A DNA stretch of 63,527 nt, the filler included, from Theionarchaea archaeon (lineage in GTDB: Archaea; Methanobacteriota_B; Thermococci; Methanofastidiosales; SZ-28-30), in assembly GCA_018992565.1 (NCBI GenBank). It is 5 parts of 5 records of this genome, joined end to end, with 100 filler letters (N's around TTAATTAATTAA, not from the genome) between each part and the next. Parts side by side here need not be neighbours in the genome. Positions count along the whole stretch, not along the records: positions 24,860 to 49,093 come from JACVGW010000038.1; 4 more parts are not named here. The stretch is one strand, 5' to 3'. Under the pieces are notes generated by a model. It had not been told where the DNA came from. It saw only the letters and a program-made list of their open reading frames with translations, and did no database searches. Shown piece after piece: positions 24,860-49,093 of this stretch; position 1 is the stretch's first letter, and every line of letters starts with the position of its first letter. A program made the position numbers and the translations under genes.

Positions 24860-25917
24860 AACCATGCCTTGTTGTGGTCAACATCGACATCCATGAGCTC
24901 TACAGAGTAGGCACCGAACTCCATGGGTTCGTGCTTGTACAGGTAGATCTGAGGCTCAAAGCTGGGGTCACCTACCACCAGGTAGGGCTTTCCGAACAGG
25001 TCGCCAAGAGCACCTGTTCTCCCGTTCATGTCGAGGATTGGACCGCCATCAACTACTGTGTAGATAGTGTTGAACAGCTTGAACTGCGGCAGCATTCCCC
25101 AGTACACCATCCACGGTTCGGGTACAGGGAAGGCGCGCACTCTGTTGTAGTCCAGTCCAGTTATTCGAATACCAGCAGGGTGGTTGTAGTCCATGTAACA
25201 CACAATTGAAGGAGGCACGAAGATGTTGTCAGCCCTGTAGATCAGACCGGGAATAGCATACCAGGCCCACAAGTTGCCCAGCATTCCATCCCATGCGTTG
25301 TACAGATCGATGTCTCCACCATACAGGCAGGCTCTGCAGTCAGCATACTGTAACCACATATCTTCCTGTGTTGAGTAGAAGTCATCAAAGCGGATCTGAA
25401 TTTCTTCGTGAGTTTCCCAGGGCTGGAAGTGCTGATCACCGTTACCCCACAGGACATTATCAAAATCATCGAAGTACCACAGTGGATTCAGGGTATAGGT
25501 TATAGGTGTTCCATTGTTGTCCCAGCCGTTGTATGGCACAGCGTCAGGAACATCAACAGTTGGATAACCCAGGCCCCACAGCACTGCATTCACTGGTACA
25601 TTGATCCATGTTCCAGAGTTAACGACAAATAACATGGGGTTGACATCCTCGTGTACAGCAACAGATGTGTCGGTAAAGGTAACTTCGTCTTCTTGCTCTG
25701 TAAAGGTCATTGTCCCAATCTTGGCAGCTAACATGGTGGCTGATACGACATCCATCGCAGCAGCACCGCTGCCTACCACAATGACACAGGTTGGCTGTCC
25801 TGTCTCAGGGTCCACGAAAAAGTCAGTGGGCGGCACCTCTTGAGCAGCAGCACCCGCAAGGGTGGCTCCTAGTAAGGCTGCTCCAGCCAATACAGCTCCA
25901 ATCTTCCTTAATTCCAT
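24860..25917 (-). CDS. S-layer protein (N-terminal part, truncated by the contig end)
   Basis: MELRKIGAVLAGAALLGATL signal peptide; IVVGSGAAAMDVVSATMLAAKIG matches the Thermococcales/Methanococcales S-layer N-terminal motif; SD AGGAGG; TATA TTTATTAA at 26036-26029. Confidence 0.85.
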
Positions 25918-25930
25918 ATTCTTTCCTCCT
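25807..25930 (-). repeat. S-layer 5' repeat copy 1 (inverted relative to 48970-49093)
   Basis: 124 nt with 5 mismatches against 48970-49093 by manual alignment. Confidence 0.95.
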
Positions 25931-26541
25931 CTTATACTTTCCCTCTCAATCATCCTCCTACACATCAGCAAATCTTGCTCGCGTAGAAACCTTCTTTTAA
26001 CTGTGCATTTACTCTTTATATCAAGCCCTTAATAAACATTTCGCTAGTTTACGTATGTCAAAGGACCAATCCCCAATGCGATGGCCTGCAGTCCGAAGTC
26101 CTGGAAAAAATCTGTTCTGGATTTCAGAAACAGCTCAGAATCATGAAAGCTGACTTAAATACTATAATCTCAACGAGAACGATATTTCCAGAAACAATTA
26201 GATTTCCCTTACAACACCTTTTCAACATACATTTTTGCTCAAAAGGTTACATTTTGAGTGCACATCAGTCATAGAGCTACAAAACTACATCTATTATTCG
26301 AAATCCCCTATTCTCTACTGCCCAGCAAGATCAGGAATATCTTTTTCTTTCTCTCATCAGCCAGCAGTCCTCCAAATATCTCGTAGTAGACAACCGCTGG
26401 GATTTCCTTCCTGTTCCTGACACTGAAGAATTCATATACAGGAACCCAGACCCGTGGTTCAGAAAGTATCTGAAAAAAGGGTGAATTTTAGCAGGCAGCA
26501 TCATGAAGAATACGAAGGGTAGCCCTGTAAATTGGTTTCGT

Positions 26542-26559
26542 CTTATAATGTATTATAAG
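26542..26559. promoter_or_regulatory. Perfect inverted repeat upstream of the MFS promoter (candidate operator)
   Basis: CTTATAAT-GT-ATTATAAG; TATA TTTATATA at 26596-26603. Confidence 0.5.
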
Positions 26560-26685
26560 TGCCTTTTAATCCATTCTAAGTACATATCCATAAAGTTTAT
26601 ATACTACAATCCTGCACTTCAGGATGAAGTAGGTATACATGCAGGGTGTTGCTGTACTCATTGAAGGCAAACAGGTGTATGAGAA

Positions 26686-27993
26686 ATGAAAGAAAGGAGC
26701 TTCCGCACCTTCATCATAATCTGGGCAGGGCAGTTCGTGTCCCTTATTGGATCGGGACTCACTGGGTTTGCTCTTGGAGTATGGGTGTATTTGACCACAG
26801 GATCAGTCACCAAGCTGTCCTTTATCATGTTATCCACGGTGATTCCCGGGATCATCATGTCACCAGTGGCAGGTGTCCTGGTAGATCGATGGAACAGGCG
26901 GAAAGCCATGATATTCAGTGATGCGGGAGCTGCCTTGAGTACGCTGGCCATTGCTGTGCTGCTCTACAGCAGTCGTCTGGAAATCTGGCACATGTACGTC
27001 TTCATATCTATTGGTTCTGCATTTGGGAGCTTCCAGTGGCCCGCCTATTCTGCCGCCACAACTCTCCTGGTTCCCAAGAATCACCTGGGACGAGCTGCAG
27101 GCATGGTGCAGACCGCAGAAGCAGCTTCTGTTATTGTTTCACCTGCTGTGGCAGGAGTTCTCATAATGACTATTCAAATATGGGGTGTCATTGCCATTGA
27201 TTTTGCCACGTTTCTGATTGCCCTGGCAACACTGGCAGTCGTTAAAATTCCTAACCCCCCTCCTACTGGTTACACTGAAGAGAACCCATCATTTCGGAAG
27301 GAAGTGACCTTTGGATGGAGGTACATCGCTGAGAGACGTGGGTTGTTTGCCCTCCTCGTCTTCTTCGCGCTGTCAAATTTCGTCTATGGGTTCGTTAATG
27401 TTCTCTTCACACCACTGGTCCTGAGCTTCACAACACCCGTTATGCTGGGAACTGTGGTTTCTATTGGCGGCATTGGGATGCTCCTGGGAGGGATAGTAAT
27501 GAGTGCATGGGGTGGACCCAGGCGGCGAGTCAATGGTATCCTGGGTGCATCGCTGGTCTCAGGGGCAGCCCTGGCAGTGGGTGGGTTGAGGGCCAGCGTC
27601 CCTCTCCTGGCGGGGGCACTTTTCCTGCTCTTTTTTACAGGTCCCGTTGCCAACGCGTGCAGCCAGGCTATCTGGCAGACAAAGACAGCTCCTGATGTCC
27701 AGGGTAAAGTCTTTGCCGTTCGCAGGATGATAGCTCTGTCTGTTTCCCCTCTTTCTTATCTGACAGCAGGCCCTCTGGCAGACAACGTCTTCGAACCTCT
27801 CTTAGCTGTCAACGGAGGTCTGGCAGGCACTGTAGGTAAGATACTTGGAGTCGGGCCGGGAAGAGGAATTGGATTCATGGTTGTGCTTATGGGAATCCTT
27901 TCTGCTGTAATCGTTGTGGGCGCTTACCTCTATCCAAGGTTGAGGCTGGTGGAAGATGAATTGCCTGACCTGGTGGGTGAGAGCACCCCTTAA
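26686..27993 (+). CDS. MFS transporter (DHA3/MefA-like efflux)
   Basis: WAGQFVSLIGS, motif A GVLVDRWNRRK, FQWPA, QGKVFA; about 12 TMs. Confidence 0.92.
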   Translation: MKERSFRTFIIIWAGQFVSLIGSGLTGFALGVWVYLTTGSVTKLSFIMLSTVIPGIIMSPVAGVLVDRWNRRKAMIFSDAGAALSTLAIAVLLYSSRLEIWHMYVFISIGSAFGSFQWPAYSAATTLLVPKNHLGRAAGMVQTAEAASVIVSPAVAGVLIMTIQIWGVIAIDFATFLIALATLAVVKIPNPPPTGYTEENPSFRKEVTFGWRYIAERRGLFALLVFFALSNFVYGFVNVLFTPLVLSFTTPVMLGTVVSIGGIGMLLGGIVMSAWGGPRRRVNGILGASLVSGAALAVGGLRASVPLLAGALFLLFFTGPVANACSQAIWQTKTAPDVQGKVFAVRRMIALSVSPLSYLTAGPLADNVFEPLLAVNGGLAGTVGKILGVGPGRGIGFMVVLMGILSAVIVVGAYLYPRLRLVEDELPDLVGESTP

Positions 27994-28392
27994 GACCCCG
28001 AGCAATGACGAAGTGAGCTGGAAGTCTTCTGGATATGGCACCGCGTTTCGCTCTTTATGGGTTCACAGTTGTGATTGTGTCATTCAAGCAACCACATTCA
28101 TATCAATGACGCATTCTCCATGGAAAAATGACGAGAATCTCAGGGTATCGACTGTGATGCCTGACCTCGATGACGGAGAGATCAAAGGATCAAAGGATAC
28201 CTTTATAAAGCTCTAAAACCTACGCAGTGGTGGACACCTCTTCATGTGAGAGGGTGATCTCAAAAAGTGGATATTATAAAGGTGGTTTCATAGGAGAGGA
28301 TGGTCAGAATAGTAAATGTGCCCTCTTCTGTAAGGGAAAGCTTTATAAATGGAAAGAAAAACTTCGATTTAGGTATCCTATTTTGTGGTTAT

Positions 28393-28466
28393 GGGCCTGT
28401 AGCTCAGTCTGGCAGAGCATCGGCCTTTTAAGCCGAGGGTCGCGGGTTCAATTCCCGTCGGGCCCG
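28393..28466 (+). tRNA. tRNA-Lys (anticodon UUU)
   Basis: Acceptor GGGCCTG/CGGGCCC plus G, D arm TAGCTCAGTCTGGCAGAGC, anticodon arm TCGGC-CTTTTAA-GCCGA, T loop GGTTCAATTCC; CCA not encoded; TATA TTTATAAA at 28342-28349. Confidence 0.96.
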
Positions 28467-28485
28467 CTCACTTCCGGTGGAGAGA

Positions 28486-28722
28486 ATGAAAAAAATTGAT
28501 CCAACTCACCATGAACTTGTCCCCGAGCACGTAGTCCTTGAAGAGGAAGAAGTAGAAGACCTGCTTCAGATTTACAATATCACTCGAGACAAGTTGCCAT
28601 TAATCAAAGCGGCAGACCCGGTAGTAAAGGCCATAGGTGCCAGACCGGGGCAAGTTGTCAAGATCATCAGGAGAGGAAGCCCTGCAGGAGAAGCAGTAAC
28701 CTATAGACTGATAATCAAGTAA
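28486..28722 (+). CDS. rpoH: RNA polymerase subunit H (Rpo5)
   Basis: HELVPEH, LPLIKAADPV, VVKIIR, YR. Confidence 0.97.
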   Translation: MKKIDPTHHELVPEHVVLEEEEVEDLLQIYNITRDKLPLIKAADPVVKAIGARPGQVVKIIRRGSPAGEAVTYRLIIK

Positions 28723-28734
28723 AGAGGGAATATT

Positions 28735-31700
28735 ATGGATAGATGGCCTATTATTAAATCCTTTTTTGACGAGAAGAAATTCGTCAGACAGCACCTGGAC
28801 TCTTACAACGACTTTATAGAAAGGGGACTTCAACAAGTCATAGATGATCAGGAGGGCATAGAAACAGATATTGAAGGGTTCTATGTCAAGTTTGGCAGGA
28901 TCAGAGCAGATATTCCGCGAGCACGAGACGCAGATGGATCTACCCGGTTCTTATATCCTCAGGAAACCCGGTTGAGAGATCTCACGTATGCTGCCCCCTT
29001 GTTCCTTGAGTTAATACCAGTGACAGAAGAAGGAGACAAGGAACCTGTGGAAGTGGCAATTGGAGAACTCCCCGTCATGGTCAAATCCAGCCTGTGTGCT
29101 CTGCAGGGAAGGAGTGATGCAGAACTGGTGGAAGTGGGAGAAGACCCCAAAGATCCTGGCGGTTACTTCATCATCAATGGATCGGAGAAAGTCATAGTCG
29201 CTATCGAAGACCTGGCTCCCAACAAGATATTGATTGAACACAGTTCGCGAACCAATTCAGTGGTAGCCAAAGTGTTTTCCACCCGACATGGATTCAGAGC
29301 GCTGGTCAAACTTGAGCGAAAAAAGGATGGACTCCTGAGAGTGTCCTTCCCATCTGTCCCTGGCAAGATTTCCTTTGTTACCATTATGAAAGCTCTGGGG
29401 CTGGCCAGTGATCAGGACATTGTCAATGCTGTCTCTGCAGAACCTGAAATCCAGAAAGAGCTCCTGGACAACCTTGAAGAGTCTATTGACATTACCAATC
29501 AAGAAGAAGCATTAGATGTTGTGGGAAAACGGGTTGCTATCGGTCAATTGCAGGAATATCGTCTGAAACGTGCAGAATACAGTGTTGATCGATATCTGCT
29601 CCCCCATATTGGAACAGATCCTGAAGATAGAATTAGAAAAGCGTACTACCTGGGTATCATGGCGGACAGAGCCATTGAGCTGGCGCTCTTGAAGAGAGAA
29701 GAAGATGACAAAGATCACTACTCCTCCAAACGATTGAGACTGGCAGGTGACCTGCTGCAGAGCTTGTTCAGGTTGTCGCTGGTGCAGCTCACAAGAGACA
29801 TCAAGTACCAGCTGGAGCGTACCTACGCACGAGGGAAATTCCAGGAAGGGAAAGAACACGAATTCGTGAAAAAAGCGGTGCGCGCAGACGTCTTGACAGA
29901 AAGAATGCGGCATGCCATGGCCACAGGCCAGTGGCCAGGAGGAAGAACAGGCGTCTCTCAGCTTCTGGACACTGTCAACTACATGTCCAAGCTCTCGCAC
30001 CTGCGCCGTGTGGTTTCCATGCTGTCCAGGAGTCAGCCACATTTTGAAGCCCGTGACTTGCATCCTACACACTGGGGGAGAATCTGTCCTTCTGAAACCC
30101 CTGAAGGTCCCAACTGCGGGCTGGTTAAGAACCTGGCCCTGATGTGCGAAGTGGCAGTGGGAGTGGATGAAGAAGATATTGAACGATATCTGCTGGAGAT
30201 TGGAGTCAACAAAATATTGAAGAAAGCCCCCAAATCACTGACATTCGTCTACCTGAATGGTTCCCTGGTGGGGACTCATGAAGATGGGAGAGAACTGATA
30301 GCCAGAATCAGAGAAGACAGGAGGCAGTGCAGAATTCCCCATGCAGTCAATGTTGCATACTTTGAAGACACGAATGAACTCCAGATCAACTGCGATGGAG
30401 GACGGGCCCGGAGGCCCCTGATTGTGGTAGATGAAGGTGTACCCAGAATAAACGAAGAGACGGTAGAACAGATTCTACATGGCGATTTGCAGTGGAGTGA
30501 TCTCGTGGAGAGGGGACTGGTGGAGTACCTGGATGCTGAGGAAGAAGAAAATGCGTACATAGCTATTAAGGAGGATGAATTGTCTCCAGAACACACTCAC
30601 CTGGAGATCTTTCCCGCCACCATCCTGGGCATATCAGCCAGCATTGTACCATTCCCTGAACACAACGCAGCTCCCAGAAATTCCTACGGGGCTGGAATGG
30701 CCAAACAGAGTCTGGGCTTCGGATCGGCGAACTTCAAGCTGCGGGTCGAAACCCGGGAGCATCTCATGCACTACCCTCAGGGACAGCTGGTAACAACCAA
30801 GGTAATGAAAGCTGTTGAATTTGACAAACGCCCTGCAGGGCAGAATTTCATCGTAGCCGTTCTCTCGTACACAGGGTACAATATTGAGGATGCACTGATC
30901 ATCAACAAGGCTGCTGTAGAGCGAGGGCTGGCCAGAACCCACTTTTTCAGAACATACAACGCAGAGGAGCGGCGTTATCCTGGTGGACAGGTTGACATCT
31001 TTGAAATCCCGGATAAAACCATCCGTGGGTACCGGGGAGCTGAATCCTACAAGTACCTGGACGAGGATGGGCTGGTTTGGCCTGAGACCGTGGTGAATGG
31101 AGGAGAAGTGTTAATCGGCAGGACATCACCTCCTCGATTCCTTCAAGAACTGGATGAGTTCGGGACAGCCATCAGTGATCGTGAGGAAACCTCCATCTCT
31201 GCCAGAGTGTCAGAAACGGGAGTGGTTGATCTGACTCTGCTGACCGAGACTCAGGATGGGAACAAACTGGTGAAGATAAAAGTCCGAGACGAGCGTATTC
31301 CAGAACTGGGAGATAAGTTTGCCTCACGCCATGGGCAGAAAGGTGTTATTGGATTAATAGTCCCACAACAGGACATGCCCGTAACGGAATCAGGTATCAC
31401 TCCTGATATGATTGTCAACCCTCATGCTATTCCTTCCAGAAAGACAGTAGGGCAGATCCTTGAGATGATGGCAGGAAAGGCAGCATGTATACAGGGAGAA
31501 GTGATGGATGCTACAGCCTTTGATAATGTGGGAGAATCCGAGATCAGAGACATCCTCAGGGAGAATGGGTTCAAGAGCATTGGTACTGAACGGTTGTACA
31601 ATGGCATGACTGGGGAGTTGATTGAAGCTGAAATCTTCCTTGGAGTATGCTATTACCAGAAGCTCCATCACATGGTGGCAGATAAGATGCATGCCCGGTC

Positions 31701-32046
31701 ACGCGGACCTAGACAGATGCTCACCAGACAGCCGACAGAAGGAAAAGCCAGAGAAGGAGGGTTGCGATTTGGTGAGATGGAGAGAGACTGCCTGGTAGGC
31801 CACGGGGCTGCTATGCTTCTGAAGGAACGGCTCCTGGATGCCTCAGATACCTGCGAGGTTCTGGTTTGCGCCAAGTGTGGGGATATTGCCATTTATGACA
31901 GGATCCGGGACAGGCGGTACTGCCCCTCATGTGGGGAAGATACCGAAATCTACCCTGTGGAAATGTCTTACGCTTTCAAATTACTGCTTGAAGAGCTGAA
32001 ATCAATGTGTCTCTCACCAAAGCTACTCCTGAAGGAGAGGGCGTGA
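28735..32046 (+). CDS. rpoB: RNA polymerase subunit B (Rpo2), unsplit
   Basis: QHLDSYN, GYFIINGSEKV, ETPEGPNCGL, GDKFASRHGQKG, GGLRFGEMERD, C-terminal Zn ribbon. Confidence 0.99.
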   Translation: MDRWPIIKSFFDEKKFVRQHLDSYNDFIERGLQQVIDDQEGIETDIEGFYVKFGRIRADIPRARDADGSTRFLYPQETRLRDLTYAAPLFLELIPVTEEGDKEPVEVAIGELPVMVKSSLCALQGRSDAELVEVGEDPKDPGGYFIINGSEKVIVAIEDLAPNKILIEHSSRTNSVVAKVFSTRHGFRALVKLERKKDGLLRVSFPSVPGKISFVTIMKALGLASDQDIVNAVSAEPEIQKELLDNLEESIDITNQEEALDVVGKRVAIGQLQEYRLKRAEYSVDRYLLPHIGTDPEDRIRKAYYLGIMADRAIELALLKREEDDKDHYSSKRLRLAGDLLQSLFRLSLVQLTRDIKYQLERTYARGKFQEGKEHEFVKKAVRADVLTERMRHAMATGQWPGGRTGVSQLLDTVNYMSKLSHLRRVVSMLSRSQPHFEARDLHPTHWGRICPSETPEGPNCGLVKNLALMCEVAVGVDEEDIERYLLEIGVNKILKKAPKSLTFVYLNGSLVGTHEDGRELIARIREDRRQCRIPHAVNVAYFEDTNELQINCDGGRARRPLIVVDEGVPRINEETVEQILHGDLQWSDLVERGLVEYLDAEEEENAYIAIKEDELSPEHTHLEIFPATILGISASIVPFPEHNAAPRNSYGAGMAKQSLGFGSANFKLRVETREHLMHYPQGQLVTTKVMKAVEFDKRPAGQNFIVAVLSYTGYNIEDALIINKAAVERGLARTHFFRTYNAEERRYPGGQVDIFEIPDKTIRGYRGAESYKYLDEDGLVWPETVVNGGEVLIGRTSPPRFLQELDEFGTAISDREETSISARVSETGVVDLTLLTETQDGNKLVKIKVRDERIPELGDKFASRHGQKGVIGLIVPQQDMPVTESGITPDMIVNPHAIPSRKTVGQILEMMAGKAACIQGEVMDATAFDNVGESEIRDILRENGFKSIGTERLYNGMTGELIEAEIFLGVCYYQKLHHMVADKMHARSRGPRQMLTRQPTEGKAREGGLRFGEMERDCLVGHGAAMLLKERLLDASDTCEVLVCAKCGDIAIYDRIRDRRYCPSCGEDTEIYPVEMSYAFKLLLEELKSMCLSPKLLLKERA

Positions 32047-32050
32047 TACT

Positions 32051-34684
32051 ATGAGTCTAAAGGTGATTAAAGAGATAAAATTCGGGATACTCTCCCCCGA
32101 TGCCATCAGAAAAATGTCTGTCGTGAAGATTGTCACTGCAGATACCTACGATGATGAAGGATATCCCATTGAAAAGGGACTGGTAGACCCCCGTCTGGGT
32201 GTCATTGACCCTGGGCTGAAGTGCCGCACCTGTGGAATGCGGTTTGGTGAATGCCCGGGACACTTCGGCCACATCGAACTGGCCAGACCAGTCATCCATA
32301 TGGGGTATGCAAAGGAAATTTATAAGGTTCTAAAAGGAGTATGCCACAACTGCTATCGCGTCCTCCTGGATAATGACGAGATCAAGAAGTATTCCAAGCG
32401 ATTGAAAGAAGCCAAAGTGCGGGATGTGGAAAAGCAGAAAGTACTCAAGATTATTGCCAAACAGTCTGCTCGCCGCAGACGATATACCAAGAATAACATC
32501 TGCCCCCACTGCGGGGCGGAACTGCCGCGTATACGATTTGAGAAGCCCACAACCTACATGGAGAACACAGAGAAGCTGTCTCCTTCTGATATCCGGGCCC
32601 GATTGGAGAAAATATCAAATGAAGATGCAGAACTCCTGGGCTTTGATCCTGAGGTAGCGAGACCGGAGTGGCTCATACTGACTGCGCTGCCTGTAGCACC
32701 TGTGACAGTAAGACCCTCCATTACTCTGGAGAGCGGAGCTCGCTCTGAAGATGACATGACCCACAAGCTGGTGGACATTATCAGAATTAACCAGAGGTTA
32801 CGGGAAAACATCGATGCAGGTGCGCCCCAGTTGATTGTGGAGGATTTGTGGGAACTTCTCCAGTATCACGTGACCACCTATTTTGATAACGAAGTTTCTG
32901 GGGTCCCTCCTGCCAGGCATCGCTCAGGACGAGTTTTGAAGACACTGGCACAGAGACTCAAAGGGAAGGAAGGACGGTTCAGAAACAACTTGTCGGGAAA
33001 ACGGGTGGACTTTTCTGCCCGGACAGTCATCTCTCCTGACCCCAATGTATCCATTAATGAAGTGGGTGTGCCCACTCCAGTGGCCATGGAGCTGACAATA
33101 CCCGAGAGGGTAACGTATAAGACACGGGATGAACTGAGGAACCTGGTCCTGCGAGGTCCCTCCCAGCATCCTGGTGCAAACTACATAATCAGGCCTGATG
33201 GCCGCAGAAAGCGTATTCCTGCCAACGATGAAGAGCTGAGAAAGACCCTTGCAGAAGAGCTCGATGTGGGATACGTGGTGGAACGACACCTGCGAAATGG
33301 AGATGTTGTTCTGTTCAACAGACAGCCTTCCCTGCACAGGTTGAGCATCATGGCCCACGAGGTCAGGGTCATGCCGTATCGAACTTTCAGGTTGAACCTG
33401 TGTGTGTGTCCCCCATACAATGCGGATTTCGATGGAGATGAAATGAACCTCCATGTACCTCAGACAGAAGAAGCCCAGGCAGAAGCTCTTATTCTAATGC
33501 GGGTGCAGGAACAGATCATATCCCCCCGTTACGGAGAACCTGTCATTGGAGGGGTGCAGGATTATGTCTCAGGTGCCTATATTCTCACCAGAGACGGAAC
33601 AGAATTCACAAAACGGGAAGTCGAAGAGATGTTGTGCATGGCTGGCCTCGATGTTGATATCCCCCAGGACAAGAACCTCTGGACAGGAAAAGAAATATTC
33701 TCCCTGCTCCTTCCCCCTGACCTTAACGTGGAGTATAAGAACAAAATATGCAGACGATGTACCACCTGTAGGGAAAAAGACTGTCCCTATGATGGGTATG
33801 TGGTTATCAAAGACGGTAAACTCCTCAAAGGAGCTATTGATGGAATGGCGTACAAAGCACGATCAGAATGCAAACTCCTGGACAAACTGGTCAAGGATTA
33901 TGGTACAGATACAGGAAGAAAGTTCCTCGATTCCATCACTCGACTGATTCTGTGGGTTCTAGGCATGAAAGGTATAACTGTGGATATGAATGATGTAGAA
34001 CTTGACCAGGACGCAAAAGACAGAATTGAAGAAGTGCTCCTGGATGGGGAAAACAAGGTGGACAGGCTCATCGATGCATACCATAATGGAGAACTGGAAC
34101 CTTTGCCGGGACAGAGTCTGGAAGAGACTCTGGAGAAGAAAATCATGCAGGTTCTTGCTGCAGCCAGAGATCGGGCAGGGCAGATTGCTGAGGAGTATCT
34201 GGGAATGGAACGATTCTCAGTAATCATGGCCAAGACAGGAGCAAAGGGAAACATGCTGGACCTCACACAGATGGCTGCATGTCTGGGTCAGATGTCAGTA
34301 AGAGGAGAACGCCTGCACAGAGGATACAACAACAGATCGCTCTCACACTTCAAAGAGAATGAACTTTCTGCGCGAGCCAGAGGATTTGTTCGCTCATCTT
34401 ACAACAAAGGGTTGTCTCCTACCGAATTCTTCTTCCATTCTATGGGAGGAAGGGAGGGGCTGGTGGATACCGCAGTAAGAACAGCCCAATCAGGATACAT
34501 GCAGAGGCGACTCATGAATGCCATGCAGGACCTGAAGGTGGAGTATGACAGGACGGTAAGAGACAACACAGGATTGGTTATTCAGTTCATGTATGGTGAA
34601 GATGGAGTTGATCCTGCCCGCTCTGATTACGGAAAGGCAGTTGATATTGACTGGATCATTCACAAGCACATGGAGGCGGTTTAA
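32051..34684 (+). CDS. rpoA1: RNA polymerase subunit A' (Rpo1N)
   Basis: [17 protein letters not shown] catalytic motif, [11 protein letters not shown]. Confidence 0.99.
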
Positions 34685-35808: not shown

Positions 35809-36108
35809 TTGGACGTAGGAAGGGAAATCAGAAAAGCAACCGAAACCGGAAGAGTGTTATTTGGAACTGAACAATCTCTCAAGAGCGTCAAGACGGGAGA
35901 AGCTAAACTGGTTATTGTGGCATCCAATGCCCCCGAAAAAACAAAGGAAGACCTTGAGTACTACTGCTCACTGACCCAGATCCCCGTGCATCACTACGAG
36001 GGAACCTCAGTTGACTTGGGTACACTGTGTGGAAAACCTTTTGTGATTTCAGTGCTCACTGTTATCTCACCTGGGGAAAGCAATCTGCTAATGGTGGAGG
36101 GTCACTAA
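35809..36108 (+). CDS. rpl30e: 50S ribosomal protein L30e
   Basis: TGRVLFG, KLVIVASN, LGTLCGKPF; TTG start after SD GAGGTGA. Confidence 0.96.
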   Translation: MDVGREIRKATETGRVLFGTEQSLKSVKTGEAKLVIVASNAPEKTKEDLEYYCSLTQIPVHHYEGTSVDLGTLCGKPFVISVLTVISPGESNLLMVEGH

Positions 36109-36539: not shown

Positions 36540-36547
36540 GTGAGAAT

Positions 36548-37582: not shown

Positions 37583-37586
37583 TTTC

Positions 37587-39782: not shown

Positions 39783-39784
39783 AG

Positions 39785-39831
39785 CTTTTTCTCTCTTTTT
39801 CTTGGTAATTTACCCTTTTTTTCAGCTTTTT
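39785..39831 (+). terminator. T-rich archaeal terminator after fusA
   Basis: Several T5-T7 runs immediately after the stop codon. Confidence 0.6.
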
Positions 39832-39944
39832 GTAGGTTCTATGCCATGATGGTTCCATTGCGGTTTTGAACGATAGCCGTAACCTTCGTACCACCTTTCT
39901 TTCAAATTACCTATCCTTATAAGATGTTCCTCCTCTGAAAGTCA

Positions 39945-40724: not shown

Positions 40725-40813
40725 CTGACCTTTAAGCATTCCACTGACTGCATCATGTCCCTCCTGTAACCTCAGTGACAAACCTTTTTATGTACGCTCC
40801 CCAAGAGTAGGCA

Positions 40814-41575
40814 ATGGAATCACCTGTTGACTCGGCTGTCCAGCTTATCTCTGCTTCAGACCATGCGGTGGCTTTGACTGGGGCAGGAATTTCCACTGAC
40901 TCAGGAATTCCTGATTTTCGTTCCCCTGGAGGACTGTGGAGCACATTTCCTCTCTCCTTTGGAGAGTATCATGCCTTTACAACTCGCCCTGAACAGGTTC
41001 TTGAAATAGGTAGAATTCTGCTGCCTCTGCTCGTGTCTGCTGTCCCCAATGAAGGACACAGAGCTCTCAAAAGGCTAGAAGATCTCAACATCCTGCAGGC
41101 TATCATAACACAGAATGTTGATGGGTTGCATCAGATGGCAGGGTCCAGGAATGTCATTGAGATCCACGGAACCTATAAGACTGCCACCTGTCTCAAATGC
41201 AGACGAGCTTTTACCCTGGCAGAGTTACTTCCTCTCTCCAGCTCTTCACTGGTCTGTCCCAATTGTTCAGGAACGGTAAAACCGGATGTGGTCATGTTTG
41301 GGGAACCTCTCCCTGAGGAAGTCTTCTCGCAGGCAGTTTCCCTGGTGCAAAAAGCAGATCTCATGATCGTGGTGGGATCCAGTCTTGAAGTGGTTCCCGC
41401 TTCTCATCTGGTGATTCTGGCTAATCGTAACAGAATCCCCGTCATCATCATCAACAAGACTGCAACCGCCCTGGACGCTGTAGCAGACATCATCTTGAGA
41501 GAGCGCATTTCTGAATGCCTGCCCCACCTAGCAGCCTCAGTGGGAAAGGAGGTTATATCATGCGAGTCCCAGTAG
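40814..41575 (+). CDS. cobB: NAD-dependent protein deacylase (sirtuin)
   Basis: TGAGISTDSGIPDFR, TQNVDGLH, HG...CLKC...CPNC, KPDVVMFGE, GSSL. Confidence 0.95.
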   Translation: MESPVDSAVQLISASDHAVALTGAGISTDSGIPDFRSPGGLWSTFPLSFGEYHAFTTRPEQVLEIGRILLPLLVSAVPNEGHRALKRLEDLNILQAIITQNVDGLHQMAGSRNVIEIHGTYKTATCLKCRRAFTLAELLPLSSSSLVCPNCSGTVKPDVVMFGEPLPEEVFSQAVSLVQKADLMIVVGSSLEVVPASHLVILANRNRIPVIIINKTATALDAVADIILRERISECLPHLAASVGKEVISCESQ

Positions 41576-42279
41576 GTCAAAAGATAAGAGATCTGGAACT
41601 GACAGAACCCAGAGTGACAATTCTTATTGATGAAGCTGAAAAAGAGAATTTGACCGGATTTGTCCGGGTAACCTACGAGAAAAAAGGTATCAATGATTTC
41701 TACATATTCTTCATCAATGGAACCCTCGTCGGCATATACGGCGAGGAAATGCTGACTGAGAAGGAGGTGTTTGGGAAAGAGGCTCTGGATCATGCTCTGG
41801 CCATCTTCTCGTCTGGACTTGCTGGACTCTATTCTCTGGATGGAGAGGATGTTCAGTCCCTGGGCGAAGAAGAACCCCTGTTGCTGTTGGAGAAGAAAGA
41901 GCTGGGATTCACTGAACTCTTGGAAGCGCAGCTTCGCAACCTCAATGAGGACGGGCAGTTCATGGCATCTCTGGTGGCAGATGTACAGGGGCTCCCTGTA
42001 GCAGCCATGGACTCAGAGTATCAAAATGAACGGATTGCTGCTCTCTCCGCCCTGGTGAGAGATGTATCTCACAGGGCAGAAACACAGCTCGGGTTCAAAA
42101 AGACAGATGAAGTCTCACTGGTGGACGATGACAAGGTGCGGCTGGTGTGTAGATATTTTCAGGTGGGAGACCAAACCTACATACTCTCCTGTGTCGTGCC
42201 TGCTTACCAGCCCTACAGGCGCCTGACGAATACTGCTCTCAGGGAAATTGAAAAGATTATGAAACAGAGGTTTTCCTGA
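41560..42279 (+). CDS. DUF2226-like N-terminal domain fused to a Roadblock/LC7 (MglB-like) domain
   Basis: N-terminal LTGFVRV...FFINGTLVG; C-terminal ASLVADVQGLPVAA...ERIAALSALVRDVSHRAETQLGFKKTDEVSL; SD AGGAGGT before ATG 41560. Confidence 0.75.
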   Translation: MRVPVGQKIRDLELTEPRVTILIDEAEKENLTGFVRVTYEKKGINDFYIFFINGTLVGIYGEEMLTEKEVFGKEALDHALAIFSSGLAGLYSLDGEDVQSLGEEEPLLLLEKKELGFTELLEAQLRNLNEDGQFMASLVADVQGLPVAAMDSEYQNERIAALSALVRDVSHRAETQLGFKKTDEVSLVDDDKVRLVCRYFQVGDQTYILSCVVPAYQPYRRLTNTALREIEKIMKQRFS

Positions 42280-42629
42280 TGCTGAAAGAGGTAGAATTTG
42301 GCTCTGTACAATACAAGAATAGGATATACACCCACGATATCTATGTTCATCCTTCAGGTGCTGTGGAACCTCGAAGGAAAGAGCTATCCAGCCTGGTTCA
42401 TGGGACCAGCCATAAGGTCGTCAAGGCAGAAATGGAAATCTTGCTGCTGGAAGATCCAGATTGCGTCATTATTGGAACAGGATACAGTGGTGCATTGCAC
42501 CTGACAGAAGAAGCAAGAGACTTCCTTAAGCAGAAAGGAGTATTCTACCAGGAGCTATTGACTCCTCAAGCAATTATAGAATTCAACCACAGATATAACT
42601 GTGCAATTCTAGTCCACGTTACCTGCTAG
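42279..42629 (+). CDS. Mth938-like (DUF498) domain protein
   Basis: FGSVQY...YTHDI, SHKV, VIIGTG, TPQAIIEFN, HVTC. Confidence 0.9.
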   Translation: MLKEVEFGSVQYKNRIYTHDIYVHPSGAVEPRRKELSSLVHGTSHKVVKAEMEILLLEDPDCVIIGTGYSGALHLTEEARDFLKQKGVFYQELLTPQAIIEFNHRYNCAILVHVTC

Positions 42630-44654
42630 TTGATCGAGTACTGATCGGGCAATTCCTTCTCCCACTATGCTCTCCAGTTCAGAGAGAGATGCCTTCTTTA
42701 TGTCCTGAAGTGTCTCAAACCCATGGTCATACAAAGAACGCGCTCTGACCCGTCCAATATTCTTGATTCGGACCAGAGGGAGTAATTCTTCTTTGATGCC
42801 GTACTTGAGGCGCACACGCAATTTTCTTATGTCTGCCTGGGGGTGAGAGAAGAGCCTGGCAATCTCGCCAAACGAGTATAAGAGCCAGGTTGCTGCCTCC
42901 CGCATTCTGTACAAGTCGCCGGGTCCCACACTAAAATGAGTACAGATCTCTTTCTCATCCACCTCTTCCACCCACATGGAGAGGAGCGACGCAGTCTTCA
43001 CCTGGGATAAGAATATCTCGTATAATTCAGGTTCTTCCCACGTATCTGGTATGGGGAGGAGAAAAGACTCTTTGTGTTCTTCAGTCAGCAGGTCGTACTC
43101 AGAAAAGTCTCCCCGCCTCAAGTACAATCCAGGCATATCAGGACAGGCAGACACAGCATGCAGTATTCCGATGGGGAGCATATCATTCTGGAGGGCCTGT
43201 CGGAGCACTACTGCAGAAGCAGGGTCAATATACAACTGAGACACTCTCCTCCCAAAAGGTGTGGCTTCAAACCCCTGGACTAGGTTGTGACGTTCCAGGT
43301 AGTCTCTGGCCTGATTGATGGTGTCATACACGTATTCTTCCCCGTTCTGGTGAACGTAGAGCGTCTTTGAGAAGAACTTCCTGAGATCCTCTTCAGACTT
43401 CATGTAATCAGAAGCCATAAGTGCCAGAAGATGGGTTCTCAGTGCAGGCTGGGAGGCCAGTTTGGAGGAGATTCTCTCGGGTTCTGCAAAAATGTATCGT
43501 CCAAACAGCTGGTCCACATCCTCTTGGTTCTTGGCCACTAGGATTGCTTCCCCTTCTGAATCATACCTGGGCCTTCCTGCCCGCCCCATCATCTGCTGGA
43601 TTTCCAGAGTGGGTATGAAGTAGTATCCAAGGTTCTGGTAGAACCGTTTGACATCCCTGACCACAACTCGTCTGGCAGGCAGGTTAATCCCTGCAGCCAG
43701 GGTGGGAGTGGCCACCAGCACCTTTAACTGGTTGGCTTTGAATGCTTCCTCAATAAGCAATCTGTCCTGCCGCTTCAGTCCTGCATGATGAAAACTCACA
43801 CCGCGGAGAGAACATTCCTGCAGTACGGAGCGATAGATAGAATCAGAAAAATGCAATGGTTCACATGTGATCATGTTCTTCAGGCTGCGAGCAATGCGAG
43901 ATGCCACAGCCTGTGTCGACTTCCTTGTGTTGACAAAAAAGAGGACCTGACCTTTTTTCAAGCTGTCCACAGCCAGTGTTACACAGGGATCACCGTGAGA
44001 TATGATCTGCTCAGGACCATCTTCAAAGACAATGATAGCCTCATGAAACACGCCTTTTCTCAAAGGAACGGGGCGCCATTCAGACGTTACCAGTTCTGCA
44101 TCAAGCCATTGAGCAAGATCAGAGGCATTGGAAATAGTGGCAGACAAAGCCAGAATTCGTTTCCCTTTCATTTTTGACAGGATCATCTCCAGAGTAGGAC
44201 CTCTCCCGGGATCATCCAGGAGGTGAACCTCATCTGCTACCACAAGATGAACCTCATCGAAAAATGTCACATCGTGGCGGAGGAGCGAATCGCACTTTTC
44301 CGAGGTGGTAACCACTACATCATACTGTTTGAGATATGTATTGGCAGAATCGTAGTCTCCTGTGGTCAGCGCAACATTGATGCCCAGCTCCTTCATGTCC
44401 TGGTACTTCTCTTCGGCCAGAGCTTTCAGAGGTACTATGTACACTGCTTTTTGGTTCCTCTGCAGAGCCTTAATCACTGCAAGAAGGGCAATAAGCGTCT
44501 TTCCAGAAGCTGTGGGAATTGCCAGCACCATGTTCCTGTCTCCAAGAAGGCCCACATGCACCGCCTGTTCCTGTGGGGGAAAGAGTGTGTCATACCCTGC
44601 ACCCTCCAGCTTCTGAATGTACCTGCTGGGGAGATCGAGCTCTCTCAGACGCAT
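42609..44654 (-). CDS. hel308: Ski2-like DEAD/DEAH helicase Hel308 (Hjm)
   Basis: PTASGKT, DEVH, SAT, FHHAGL, TPTLAAGINLPAR, QMMGRAGRP, IGRVRAR. Confidence 0.94.
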   Translation of the reverse strand: MRLRELDLPSRYIQKLEGAGYDTLFPPQEQAVHVGLLGDRNMVLAIPTASGKTLIALLAVIKALQRNQKAVYIVPLKALAEEKYQDMKELGINVALTTGDYDSANTYLKQYDVVVTTSEKCDSLLRHDVTFFDEVHLVVADEVHLLDDPGRGPTLEMILSKMKGKRILALSATISNASDLAQWLDAELVTSEWRPVPLRKGVFHEAIIVFEDGPEQIISHGDPCVTLAVDSLKKGQVLFFVNTRKSTQAVASRIARSLKNMITCEPLHFSDSIYRSVLQECSLRGVSFHHAGLKRQDRLLIEEAFKANQLKVLVATPTLAAGINLPARRVVVRDVKRFYQNLGYYFIPTLEIQQMMGRAGRPRYDSEGEAILVAKNQEDVDQLFGRYIFAEPERISSKLASQPALRTHLLALMASDYMKSEEDLRKFFSKTLYVHQNGEEYVYDTINQARDYLERHNLVQGFEATPFGRRVSQLYIDPASAVVLRQALQNDMLPIGILHAVSACPDMPGLYLRRGDFSEYDLLTEEHKESFLLPIPDTWEEPELYEIFLSQVKTASLLSMWVEEVDEKEICTHFSVGPGDLYRMREAATWLLYSFGEIARLFSHPQADIRKLRVRLKYGIKEELLPLVRIKNIGRVRARSLYDHGFETLQDIKKASLSELESIVGEGIARSVLDQLAGNVD

Positions 44655-44710
44655 GAACCTTTTTCCCAACTATGCTAATAAAGATGTCTCTCAGAACGGT
44701 ATCCAGATGG

Positions 44711-45094
44711 CTACTTTTTCTCAATCTCATCTGCATGATTCTTAGCATTTCTGGCTCTTCCCGTCTCACCAGTTGCAGTCCACAGAGCAGCTGCCCTCTT
44801 CCAGGCGTCTGCTGCACTGCCCCACAATTCCCTGTTCTCATAGGCCCTGGCTGCCACTTCCCAGTCAAGAGCAGCTTTCATGCGGTCATTTCGTGCTTGC
44901 TCCTCATCTCCTGCAGCTTCTCTGAGCCGGGCTGCTTCCTCCCAGGTTTGTGCAGCATCATCCCAGTGCAAGATACGCTCATACCCACTGGCCTGTTTTT
45001 CCAGCTCCTTGGCACTCTCTTGCGAGGGCTTTTCCTTGCTCAGGCATCCTGCCAGCAGCATTACCACAAGCATTGTGCACAGAGTTTTCCTCAT
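44711..45094 (-). CDS. Putative lipoprotein with Trp/Ala helical repeats
   Basis: MRK...LLAGC lipobox; WDDAAQTWEEAA / WEVAA / WGSAADAWKRAA. Confidence 0.75.
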   Translation of the reverse strand: MRKTLCTMLVVMLLAGCLSKEKPSQESAKELEKQASGYERILHWDDAAQTWEEAARLREAAGDEEQARNDRMKAALDWEVAARAYENRELWGSAADAWKRAAALWTATGETGRARNAKNHADEIEKK

Positions 45095-45157
45095 TTGATT
45101 CCCTCTCCAGGTGGACTTATGGCCTGTGCTGTTGATCCATATCCTCCATCACAGTTC

Positions 45158-45322
45158 TTACCCGCTTTCATGTGGTATCTGATACTCTGAAGATTCAGAA
45201 GTATCCTGGAACTGTCGACAGCAGCAGCAGTAGCAATCTTTCGCTTCCAGTACCTTCCTGTGGGCAACCACGCATGTCTCTACAGGATTCTCCCTCTTGC
45301 AGGACTCTGGTCTTACATTCAT
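45158..45322 (-). CDS. Small Cys-rich ORF (54 aa, CYCCCC), not in the supplied ORF track
   Basis: Manual translation MNVRPESCKRENPVETCVVAHRKVLEAKDCYCCCCRQFQDTSESSEYQIPHESG; ATGA overlap with the iscU stop, AGGAGG upstream. Confidence 0.4.
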   Translation of the reverse strand: MNVRPESCKRENPVETCVVAHRKVLEAKDCYCCCCRQFQDTSESSEYQIPHESG

Positions 45323-45693
45323 GGATGTTTCCTCCTGTAATCTTCAATAGCCAGTCTGAGACAGTCAGCAGCCAACAGGGAACAGTGTATCTTGGGTTCT
45401 GGAACACCACCAAGGTTGTCTGCGATGGCTTCCTTGGTAATGGCTTCTGCATCGTCCAGAGTCATTCCTTTGATCATCTCTGTTAACATACTTCCGCTAG
45501 CAACTGCTGCCGCACATCCGAATGTTGTATACTTGGCATCGATAATTTTTCCATCCTTTACCTGTATATACAGATGCATGATATCTCCACATACGTCACT
45601 GGAGAGCTTACCCACTCCATCTGCTTTCTCAATGACACCTACATTGCGCGGATTTTGAAAGTGATCCATGAGCGTTTCGCTGTACTCTACCAT
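45319..45693 (-). CDS. iscU: Fe-S cluster scaffold IscU/NifU-N
   Basis: DHFQNPRNVG, CGD, FGCAAAVAS, KIHCS. Confidence 0.95.
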   Translation of the reverse strand: MVEYSETLMDHFQNPRNVGVIEKADGVGKLSSDVCGDIMHLYIQVKDGKIIDAKYTTFGCAAAVASGSMLTEMIKGMTLDDAEAITKEAIADNLGGVPEPKIHCSLLAADCLRLAIEDYRRKHP

Positions 45694-45891
45694 ACACTGT
45701 CCTCATACGTGGGGTGCTTTTATTTATTGCGGTTGTATGTGCCACTTCAGCTCAGTGTGAGCCACCTCTCGGCAATCAAGAAGGAGGGCATTGTCATCAT
45801 GAATGCAAACCCTTTTAAAGTCAACCTTATATCACGGTAATATATCATATAGCATATCATATGTACTCAAAATTCGTGTCGAGGTGAATCT

Positions 45892-47166
45892 ATGTGGAAA
45901 TCACTCCTATATCTCCCGCTTTTTTACAAAAATCAGTATCGATCTCCTGATTCCTTCAGACAATTTCAGGAGAAACGGCTGAGGCACATAGTCGCTCACG
46001 CGTACCGGAATGTACCTTTGTACCATAGGAAATTCAGAGAACAGGGGCTCTCTCCTTCTGATGTAACCACACTCCATGACCTGGTCAAAATCCCTATTAC
46101 TACCAAGAAGGAAATAAAGTCAGGATTTCCTCACGACAGCGTGGCTCGAGGTTATTCAGAAAAGACCTGTATTACAGAGACCACATCCGGGACTTCAGGC
46201 AATATGCTCACCGTGCTGTACGACAGGAGAGGCTACGAAATTCTGCGATCAGTGGCCTTCAGAGCCTTTCTGGCTCAGGGACTGCGCCCCTGGCACAAGT
46301 ACTGCATCATGTGCCGGGATCTGAGAGAATTCAACAAAGCTACAGGGAGTGTTCTATACAGGACCAGAGGACTACTGGAAGGAAGACCCGAATCAGAGTT
46401 AGTGAAGGAACTGAGAGGAATCCAGCCTGAAGTCATAGGCGCTCATCCTTCTCTGTTTGTCACTATGGCAAAAATCATGGAAAAGAATGCTGTCACAGAT
46501 ATTACTCCCCGTATGCTTTTCATCGGCGGTGAAATGAGTTATCCTGTGCATAGAGAGTACATAGAGAGGATTTTTGGCTGCTCTACCTTCAACAAGTATG
46601 GGGCGTATGAAGCCAACTCACTCGCCTGGGAATGTAAGTATCATACTATGCATATGGATGCAGATTCTGTCATTATGGAATTTGTGAGAGATGGGGAGCC
46701 AGTATCCCCTGGTGAGCGGGGAGAAGTCCTCATCACCAATCTATGGAATGAAGCTATGCCCTTTCTCCGATACCGCCTGGATGACGTAGGAATACCCTCA
46801 GATGAATCATGTCCTTGCGGAAGGACTCTTCCTGTTCTCGAAGAAATCGAGGGAAAATTGGATGACTTCATCATACTATCTTCCGGCGAATTGATTCCAT
46901 CCACACGGATTATACCCTATCTTTTCGATGCTCCACATATTGACCAGTTCAAAGTACTGCAAGATTCTCCAGACCACATAGAGCTGAGAATCGTCCCTCA
47001 GGAAGGGTTCACCGATGACATGGAAAGAGAATTGGTCGCCTGCATTCAGACTGCACTGGACATGAGGATCACTGTGACTGTACGAAAAGTCCATCATGTC
47101 GACCTCACCGGTCAGGGAAAGTACAAGCGCGTACAGCGCACATTCGAGATAGATTCCTTCATGTAG
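45892..47166 (+). CDS. Phenylacetate-CoA ligase / CapK / F390-synthetase-like adenylate-forming enzyme
   Basis: HAYRNVPLY, TSGTSG, YGAYE, MPFLRYRLDD, CPCGR, GKYK. Confidence 0.88.
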   Translation: MWKSLLYLPLFYKNQYRSPDSFRQFQEKRLRHIVAHAYRNVPLYHRKFREQGLSPSDVTTLHDLVKIPITTKKEIKSGFPHDSVARGYSEKTCITETTSGTSGNMLTVLYDRRGYEILRSVAFRAFLAQGLRPWHKYCIMCRDLREFNKATGSVLYRTRGLLEGRPESELVKELRGIQPEVIGAHPSLFVTMAKIMEKNAVTDITPRMLFIGGEMSYPVHREYIERIFGCSTFNKYGAYEANSLAWECKYHTMHMDADSVIMEFVRDGEPVSPGERGEVLITNLWNEAMPFLRYRLDDVGIPSDESCPCGRTLPVLEEIEGKLDDFIILSSGELIPSTRIIPYLFDAPHIDQFKVLQDSPDHIELRIVPQEGFTDDMERELVACIQTALDMRITVTVRKVHHVDLTGQGKYKRVQRTFEIDSFM

Positions 47167-47178
47167 AGGGTTTGTCAC

Positions 47179-48450
47179 CTACTGCTGGCCCACCAGTGAA
47201 CGCACAGGACGAGGCCTATTGTGCCTTCCTCTGGGCAGTTCCTGGCATTCATTAAGCACTATGTCTACTGGTTCACCAAGGACGGCTCTAAATTCCTCTT
47301 CTATGTTCATTCCCCACTCTCTGGTGAAATGAGCACACGGAACAAAATCAACCTGAATGAGATCTTTCTTCTTCTGTATCACTTGGAACTCCTGTATCTC
47401 ACTTGCCAGCTCGAATAATGGAATCACCAACCGTGGGCTGATCCTCTTTCCACTGGGCAGAACCAGAAAATCATCATCTCTTCCCACCACGAGCTTCATC
47501 AAAGGCAGTCCCCGTCCACAGGAACACGTATCTTCAAGGGGAACTCCCCTGTCATTGAGGCTGTAGCGTATGAATGGCATTGCTTCATTCACCAAGGAGG
47601 TTGCATAAATCTCCCCCTCTTCACCAGGTGCCACTGGTTCTCCCTCTTTCAAGAACTCCAGGAAGACATTATCTGCCGATATATGGTGGTTTCTCTCTGC
47701 ACATTCAAAGGCCAGGCTGACGAATTCAATAGAGCCATATTCCTCGTACAGGGGACAGCCAAAAACGGATTCCATGTATGTCTTGGCACTCTTGGTCAGA
47801 ATTTCGGCTTCTGCTCGAACAAATAATGGATGAATACAGGTTCCCTCTTGTTCCATACGTTTGGCCCATTCTATCATGATTGAAGGATACCCTGTTATGG
47901 CATGCGGGTTGAACTGCCTCACCATGGCAATCTGCTGATCAGCCGGCAGGGTGACTGGTATGAACAGCTTCCTGACAATGCCCAGCCTTTCATATGAGGG
48001 TGTTCCTCCGTGGATAGGCTCATAGCGAACATATCCAAGTTTATGCCATGGGTTGTATCCTAATGCTGCGAAATTCCGATATGTGGCCGCCATTTGAAAT
48101 TCGTAAGCTGAGGGGGAATACACCAAATCGAGTACCTCACCTGTGGAGCCTGACGTGACGGCCCGGTAGCACTGGTCCACTGAGTATTCTCGGGAAACCA
48201 CTCCATGGGGGAAAGCGTTCCTTATTTCTGATTTGGTAACAGTAGGGAACTTAGTGATATCATCTAGCGTCTCAAAATCGGCAGGAGTGAGATGTGCTTC
48301 CCTCAATTTTCTGTGATAAAGTTCTGTGTTTTCATACGCATACCGGAGAATCTTCCTGATTCTCTTTGCCTGCAGATCCCTCAATTCTGCAGTTGATTTC
48401 CACTGATCTCTCAATACCCGTGCTACATAGTATACCTGTCGTGCGAACAT
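47179..48450 (-). CDS. Phenylacetate-CoA ligase / CapK-like adenylate-forming enzyme (paralogue)
   Basis: YAYENTELY, TSGSTG, GYPS, YGSIE, MPFIRY, CSCGR, GRDDD; ATG 48450 after GGTGGTGA. Confidence 0.88.
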   Translation of the reverse strand: MFARQVYYVARVLRDQWKSTAELRDLQAKRIRKILRYAYENTELYHRKLREAHLTPADFETLDDITKFPTVTKSEIRNAFPHGVVSREYSVDQCYRAVTSGSTGEVLDLVYSPSAYEFQMAATYRNFAALGYNPWHKLGYVRYEPIHGGTPSYERLGIVRKLFIPVTLPADQQIAMVRQFNPHAITGYPSIMIEWAKRMEQEGTCIHPLFVRAEAEILTKSAKTYMESVFGCPLYEEYGSIEFVSLAFECAERNHHISADNVFLEFLKEGEPVAPGEEGEIYATSLVNEAMPFIRYSLNDRGVPLEDTCSCGRGLPLMKLVVGRDDDFLVLPSGKRISPRLVIPLFELASEIQEFQVIQKKKDLIQVDFVPCAHFTREWGMNIEEEFRAVLGEPVDIVLNECQELPRGRHNRPRPVRSLVGQQ

Positions 48451-48969
48451 TTTCACCACCCCCTCATAACAGACCTAGTACTTAAAAAGGTAACCATCAC
48501 CAGATTCCTTCACAATACATGGAGAAACTCCCAGGAGTAATCAATTGATGAGAGTTGACACCACTATTCAAGAAGGAAATTGTGACTGCAGAAGGGCAAT
48601 ACAGATTCAGAAACAGCAACGCAGCCTTACTGGATTGCTTCTTTCGTGCTCCACATTCTTTATAGTATCACTACACATATCCGCCCGTATCGCCGTTGGG
48701 GTGCTGCCCTGCTTCAGGTATGTGGCAAAGAGATGCTGGTCGTAGAGGAGTTTCACTTATGCGTTTTCTCCCCCATCAATACTTCGATGGACAAGCTTTT
48801 TTTACAAGAACGTGTCTAAATCCGATAGTCCTCAACCTACTATTAATGATAGCAACAGAAAGCTTATTAAGTAAGTACTGAAAAAGAAAGATGCTTAGAG
48901 GATAGCAGGTCTCAGCGCAATTGGGATCTGCCATTGCATCCTGAGAAAAACAGGAGCAAGATCCGGATT

Positions 48970-49093
48970 AGGAGGAAAGAATATGAAATTAAGGAAGATT
49001 GGAGCTGTATTGGCTGGAGCCGCATTACTTGGAGCCACCCTTGCGGGTGCTGCTGCTCAAGAGGTGCCACCCACTGACTTTTTCGTGGACCCT
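48970..49093 (+). repeat. S-layer 5' repeat copy 2
   Basis: Near-identical to the reverse complement of 25807-25930. Confidence 0.95.
48983..49093 (+). CDS. S-layer protein paralogue, first 37 codons only (contig end)
   Basis: MKLRKIGAVLAGAALLGATLAGAAAQEVPPTDFFVDP; SD AGGAGG; TATA CTTATTAA at 48863-48870. Confidence 0.85.

Follow-up and report, generated by a model that had tools for sequence, protein, structure and literature searches.

Near-identical S-layer genes with separate candidate promoters, two of them inverted around an RNA polymerase and EF-2 gene cluster, in a Theionarchaea genome

Results

We examined a window of 63,527 nucleotides from a Theionarchaea archaeon (GCA_018992565.1) and focused on the stretch at 24860..49093, a single contig of 24,234 bp (C113) that carries at its two ends the beginnings of outward-facing genes for surface-layer (S-layer) proteins. 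The first of these, copy A, lies on the minus strand at 24860..25917, has its ATG at 25917, and is cut off by the contig end after 1058 nt (352 codons). The second, copy B, starts on the plus strand with its ATG at 48983 and is cut off by the other contig end after 111 nt (48983..49093). The translated fragment of copy A matches both TIGR01564 (77.7 bits, E 7.6e-22, cut-off 25) and PF05124 (52.9 bits, E 4.5e-14, cut-off 23.9), which places it in this S-layer family above the curated cut-offs. Both ATGs are preceded by the same 13-nt ribosome-binding block, AGGAGGAAAGAAT, located at 25918..25930 (minus strand) for copy A and at 48970..48982 (plus strand) for copy B. The coding regions of A and B match at 106 of 111 nt, with differences at nt 4, 39, 42, 48, and 87, one of which is non-synonymous (E2K) and four of which are synonymous. 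Upstream of the shared block the resemblance ends, as the next 120 nt show an ungapped identity of 28%, which is the level of random sequence. The original prediction, made from the sequence alone, had described these two starts, the 13-nt identity, the five differences with four of them silent, and different leaders beyond a point upstream of the Shine-Dalgarno sequence, and our analysis reproduced all of this. A repeat search found only one inverted repeat of at least 30 nt in the contig, with arms at 25807-25930 and 48970-49093 (124 nt, 96% identity) that lie 23,039 nt apart; a conserved 5' region in inverted orientation is also a feature of the S-layer inversion systems of Campylobacter fetus and Lactobacillus acidophilus. 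The 16-mer made up of the ribosome-binding site and the ATG has two matches in the window, compared to none expected from 100 shuffles. The identity of A and B probably extends over the entire gene.

The same genome has one more such start, that of copy C, at the end of contig C154. Copy C is 95% identical to copy A over 1071 nt and identical to copy B at 110 of 111 nt, and the DNA upstream of it is unrelated to that of A and B. In tandem ahead of copy C is a complete paralogue, D, of 810 amino acids (~53% identical; TIGR01564 121 bits, PF05124 108.5 bits), and remoter members of the family are present on C98, C123, C140, and C49. Three S-layer 3' ends were also recovered, on C30 (the last 335 codons, a C-terminal fragment scoring 76.2 bits against PF05124), C142 (which starts 96 nt before the stop codon), and C9 (the terminal 99 nt). 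These are alike over the last ~96 nt, the stop codon, and a T-rich tail of ~38 nt, after which the flanks are unique; counted over the genome, the unique flanks number three on the 5' side and three on the 3' side. The copy number of the A/B/C type is at least three; a count of paralogues in the metagenome-assembled genome (MAG), which had been proposed as a check, gave these three near-identical copies. The common edges of the three gene ends at both 5' and 3' sides show that what is repeated, at three loci, is the whole transcribed gene, including its ribosome-binding site and a tail that resembles a terminator. Judging from full-length relatives, each complete copy would be ~2.4 kb long.

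The MAG consists of 154 contigs (2.80 Mb, 88% complete, 1.6% contaminated), and several of these contigs, which are separate in the MAG, make up the window, with joints or N runs at 9549-9648, 24760-24859, 49094-49193, 53974-54073, and 58787-58886. The joints are 44-N runs flanking a TTAATTAATTAA spacer, to which one 100-N scaffold gap is added, and adjacent pieces of the window have no physical linkage. The N runs and the spacer also bound 24860-49093, which had been read as one contig from the start and is indeed equal to C113. The positions at which the S-layer genes break off follow a regular spacing. A and C last differ at nt 959, and the contigs of both stop exactly 100 nt later, at nt 1058; for B, whose sole difference from C is at nt 12, the contig likewise stops 100 nt later, at nt 111. 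On the 3' side, the single mismatch between C142 and C30 lies 99 nt from the start of C142, which overlaps C9 by exactly 99 nt. Such a spacing of 99 or 100 nt is what a de Bruijn graph with k=99 leaves behind, as contigs stop where the copy-specific paths merge. The contig breaks are an assembly collapse at a repeat and are silent about rearrangement. That a repeated gene family breaks this assembly had been anticipated, and both the spacing of the ends and the three copies confirm it.

A sister Theionarchaea MAG of the same genus has the same outward-facing starts, of 240 nt each, at both ends of a contig of 21,110 bp (JACVGT010000036.1), which is colinear with the present contig at 82-85% identity except for window positions 45733-48795. 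The orientation of the pair in related genomes was another of the proposed checks, and it is the same inverted pair in this sister. The upstream region of copy B is 72% identical to that of the sister, with 37 of the 40 nt nearest the ribosome-binding block matching. In G002, another member of the genus, and in G003, which belongs to the same family, the available contigs showed no S-layer gene near rpoB (12.7 kb / 7 kb upstream) or after Hel308, and among the genomes searched the inverted A/B pair is confined to this genome and its sister. The tandem of D followed by C also occurs in G002 and in a remoter metagenome contig. A profile search gave matches at E 1e-10 or better in 29 of 41 genomes, this one included. 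On contigs with at least two matches, same-strand neighbouring copies are carried by nine relatives, and opposite-strand copies were found only here and in the sister. By this distribution, the D-C tandem is old and predates the genus, and the A/B pair originated in an ancestor that this genome shares with its sister. Three S-layer 3' ends, located at contig ends, are present in each of the sister genome and G002, and two of the sister 3' flanks are orthologous to the flanks on C142 and C30.

Public reads were available as Logan contigs from 23 runs, four of which were compared with the window, namely two RNA runs from two studies (X16 and X18) and two DNA runs from two other studies (X2 and X4). 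The contigs of these runs were built with k=31 and break at nt 34 of the S-layer gene, which is too short to phase a promoter with a gene body. About 59-60% of X2 and X4 was read, and neither the regions that lack cover there (25010-25759 in X4 and around 25422-25471 in X2) nor the lack of A-type body contigs in X2 count as evidence. The share of sampled words found in 15 DNA runs from at least seven studies was 91-95%. In X4, one contig of 20,576 nt spans from 28441 to nt 34 of copy B, and another of 2,529 nt spans from nt 34 of copy A to 28412, with the gap between the two corresponding to a tRNA-Lys gene. This tRNA-Lys(UUU) gene, at 28393-28467, lies directly upstream of rpoH, and public runs show a depth spike and a contig break here because the tRNA is conserved. 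In X2, the contig with the A promoter shows no difference, and the B-type and C-type junction contigs show one and two differences, respectively, as expected; the copy B junction is on a contig of 5.4 kb. All promoter-start junctions seen in the public runs have the reference arrangement, within contigs that reach only nt 34 of the gene. The depth in X2 is 30-42 on the gene and 10-12 on the flanks, values that are not interpretable as copy number. Separately, a low-depth X4 contig (8.7) skips 329 nt (24891 to 25221), and loose ends in X4 and X16 at 24891, 25251, and 25332 lead into dissimilar sequence, presumably that of additional S-layer variants or relatives.

Comparison between species showed a closer resemblance among the copies of one genome than between orthologues. 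The two copies of the sister are identical to each other at 238 of 240 nt, compared to 227 of 240 nt for copy A and its sister orthologue and 82-85% for the flanks between the two species. Copies A and C differ at 49 of 1058 nt, and these differences are clustered, with a longest identical run of 94 codons (permutation p 0.0001). The synonymous divergence (dS) is 0 in codons 44-137 and 0.156-0.166 on either side. Orthologues differ within nt 129-240 of this identical tract, which is therefore not free of mutation. The amino acid differences between A and C form a patchwork in which the state found in relatives is carried now by A and now by C. Paralogues that are closer than orthologues and identity that comes in tracts are the pattern of a concerted multigene family, and they support repeated gene conversion among the copies. 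The E2/K2 difference tracks the promoter across species, and exchange therefore ends just inside the gene. We also considered diversifying selection, which was rejected, as the ratio of non-synonymous to synonymous divergence (dN/dS) for A and C is 0.28. The AGGAGGAAAGAAT block is identical in all 11 family 5' ends compared, from at least three species (this genome, its sister, and metagenome relatives), and it is kept even in pairs whose first 111 coding nt are just 65-80% identical; it is therefore not a recombination scar. It is instead a ribosome-binding region conserved across the family and also provides the last stretch of homology for conversion.

Blocks resembling a B recognition element (BRE) and TATA box, a label based on the archaeal consensus, lie ~100-135 nt before the ATGs of A, B, and C. 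Each of them is conserved at the corresponding locus in another species, amid DNA that has drifted. The candidate promoter of copy A, at 26014..26045 on the minus strand, reads AGCGAAATGTTTATTAAGGG and then GATATAAAG and is conserved in the sister orthologue, while the remaining upstream region is 66% identical. That of copy B, at 48856..48871 on the plus strand, contains CAGAAAGCTTATTAAG in a block that is likewise conserved in the sister orthologue. Both RNA runs gave contigs that enter such leaders. In X18, a contig of 1155 nt combines all 49 C-type letters with 72 nt of the unique leader of copy C, and in X16 the unique leaders of copies C and A are both present. The leader of copy A, at 25931..25994 on the minus strand, falls in a bin (25910-26059) with an X16 depth of 90.6, and the depth is 0 beyond 26060. 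One X16 contig ends at 25994 and continues into non-genomic letters that are presumably Illumina adapter, a weak hint that the transcript of copy A has its 5' end ~77 nt before the ATG. Over the gene the X16 depth is 155-227, compared to 0-4 over the neighbouring intergenic DNA, MFS, rpoH, and rpoB. At least copies A and C are transcribed, and expression of the S-layer gene is very high. Carry-over of DNA was considered as a source of this signal and rejected, as the adjacent intergenic and MFS DNA has a depth of only 0-3.5 in both RNA runs, although DNA runs cover it.

The long leader of copy C (C154:60650-60849) is conserved in remoter relatives, with CTACCCAAAT before the ribosome-binding site. 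By eye it contains two short inverted repeats, one of which apparently keeps its pairing through two-sided changes, and it may act as a stabilising leader. Two metagenome contigs of a relative (L083:863-3017 and L084:9858-12015) carry the same promoter, leader, and S-layer gene at 98.75% identity over 2162 nt. Their match begins 140 nt before the ATG, and they come from two samples and have different upstream genes: one copy follows a D-like S-layer gene, and the other follows two small genes after an S-layer 3' end.

The segment between the inverted copies (25931..48969) is 23,039 bp long, in agreement with the ~23 kb with core RNA polymerase and EF-2 genes that had been described before. A Pfam scan of its 23 open reading frames (ORFs) showed that, in addition to the tRNA-Lys gene, it encodes MFS, rpoH, rpoB, rpoA', rpoA'', L30e, NusA, S12, S7, and EF-2, along with DUF166, Sir2, DUF2226, DUF498, Hel308, and ORFs of unknown function. 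Searches for recombinase, integrase, and transposase families (E 0.001 or better) gave no match among the 23 interior ORFs or among 21 ORFs beside the other copies. That no recombinase is visible had been noted at the outset and holds with this wider search, and the locus thereby departs from Hin/Gin-type switches and tyrosine-recombinase shufflons, in which a recombinase gene adjoins the invertible DNA. Hel308, a general recombination and repair helicase, is within the segment, and we attach no weight to it. The ~3 kb before copy B (45733-48795) stand opposite only ~580 nt in the sister contig and contain ORFs of 424 amino acids (no Pfam match) and 426 amino acids (a weak AMP-binding match); this appears to be an insertion or a replaced stretch. 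Beside the S-layer 3' ends on C9 (1575-3380) and C30 there are a C25 (gingipain-type) peptidase and two transglutaminase-like proteins, and the same neighbourhoods contain a Memo-AMMECR1 fusion next to a radical SAM protein.

Discussion

We believe that copies A, B, and C most likely constitute a family of three separately promoted S-layer genes that evolve in concert and, by their similarity, collapse assemblies. According to this explanation, A and B would have been added in the common ancestor with the sister species as an inverted pair flanking the cluster of RNA polymerase, ribosomal protein, and EF-2 genes. Purifying selection together with repeated gene conversion would keep the copies alike and leave a mosaic of identical and diverged tracts, with RadA-type homologous recombination as the probable agent of conversion. 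The role of the three promoters may lie in gene dosage or in differential regulation, not in switching.

Several observations weigh against this explanation. The middles of the genes and the pairing of 5' with 3' flanks are unassembled, so that a fixed arrangement is an assumption. RNA contigs in X16 combine C-type letters at nt 955-959 with A-type letters at 915 and 933, and C-type letters at eight sites with an A-type letter at nt 664; these mixed patterns could come from the body of copy B, from strain variants, or from recombinants. In the ~59% of X2 that was read, only C-type bodies appear beside an intact contig with the promoter and start of copy A. Finally, the abrupt end of homology that every copy shows at the ribosome-binding site would also fit cassettes that are exchanged by recombination.

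The headline of the original prediction was a switch like that of C. fetus, and our results did not favour it. A, B, and C are each preceded by a conserved promoter block of their own, and the leaders of both A and C are found in RNA contigs; a single expression site with silent copies, as in the C. fetus and L. acidophilus systems, is therefore not what is present here, and a switch with one promoter and silent cassettes is not supported. A broader version is a working switch in which homologous recombination between A and B would invert the 23 kb that separate them, join promoters and 5' ends to different gene bodies, and so change the dominant S-layer variant. The inverted copies are probably more than 2 kb long and ~95% or more identical, with 23 kb between them and their promoters inside the segment, and this arrangement has been kept in the sister species. 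Gene conversion shows that the copies do recombine, and both the mosaic RNA contigs and the C-type bodies beside promoter A in X2 would fit a switch. Against this, the three conserved promoter blocks, two of them represented in RNA, leave no silent cassette, and a swap would change little, as the copies differ by ~5% of residues with a dN/dS of 0.28. In addition, there is no recombinase near any copy (0 of 44 flanking ORFs), no alternative junction was seen in contigs that are too short to show one, and on the contigs available for G002 and G003 neither rpoB nor Hel308 has an S-layer gene as its neighbour. On balance we regard a working switch as improbable. Long inverted repeats of such identity can recombine, however, and occasional inversion of the 23-kb segment by general recombination is therefore plausible. 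It is also conceivable, if doubtful, that A and B act as a recombination hinge, in which case flips and conversion from C would reassort three differently regulated promoters and give mixed surface lattices in sediment populations, perhaps as a hedge against viruses.

The original prediction had also named gene conversion and a recent duplication as sources of the identity, and only the first of these fits the data, given the 94-codon tract and the greater likeness of paralogues than of orthologues. Under the second, the copies would be alike because they are young, with no continuing exchange, which could account for the high identity at synonymous sites, for the near-identity of B and C, and for parts of A and C. 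We consider this very unlikely, as the A/B pair is older than the divergence of the two species (flanks at 82-85%) and yet the sister pair matches at 238 of 240 nt, the divergence of A and C is patchy (dS of 0 versus 0.16), and the upstream regions are unalignable. An artefactual origin of the 111-nt end might be suspected of a contig ending in a repeat within an incomplete and fragmented MAG. Mis-assembly and a strain chimera, both named earlier as grounds for abandoning the prediction, and likewise an error of binning, can be dismissed almost entirely, because the copy B junction recurs on the long contigs of both X4 and X2 and in the sister MAG, where an upstream region of 72% identity is followed by 240 nt of the gene.

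Three near-identical S-layer genes that evolve in concert account for an assembly break that recurs across this genus, and the case serves as a warning that repeats at contig ends should not be taken for switches. It would also mean that, in an uncultured archaeon from sediment, three copies of a surface protein gene with promoters of their own are kept homogenised by gene conversion, two of them inverted around essential transcription and translation genes. Comparison with known systems helps to place this arrangement. In the sap locus of C. fetus, a single promoter lies on an invertible segment, the other homologues are promoterless and diverge after their 5' region, and inversion depends on RecA without a dedicated site-specific recombinase. 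The present family resembles it in having several S-layer homologues with conserved 5' ends, some of them mutually inverted, but differs in its separate promoters and in that identity covers the whole transcribed unit, beginning at the ribosome-binding site and reaching the terminator. In related archaea, S-layer paralogues of the same family (TIGR01564, S_layer_MJ) stand in tandem, and nine genomes have two to three same-strand copies a few kb apart, as D and C are here. The match of those tandem pairs to the query covered just the first 80-130 residues, whereas the three dispersed copies are 95-99% identical. Ribosomal RNA operons are also dispersed, near-identical repeats that are homogenised by gene conversion, with frequent assembly breaks and occasional inversions. 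The S-layer copies are similar to them as long near-identical sequences at separate loci but are protein-coding and very highly expressed surface genes with patchy retained differences.

A similar geometry is that of slpA and slpB in L. acidophilus, where a chromosomal inversion places the silent gene before a single active promoter (PMC3666127). Both systems have two S-layer genes opposed on one chromosomal segment, and exchange would use the homology of the genes themselves. They differ in that each copy here has its own conserved promoter block, with at least two leaders in RNA contigs, and in that the segment consists of 23 kb of core genes with a third copy elsewhere; moreover, the arrangement here is known from contigs, with inversion unobserved. 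Literature searches on archaeal S-layer paralogues and gene conversion, and on Theionarchaea S-layers, gave no report of such an inversion among the titles and beginnings of abstracts listed. If both orientations were found, the A/B pair would be a multi-promoter archaeal counterpart of the bacterial S-layer inversion systems and, to our knowledge, the first archaeal S-layer inversion system to be reported.

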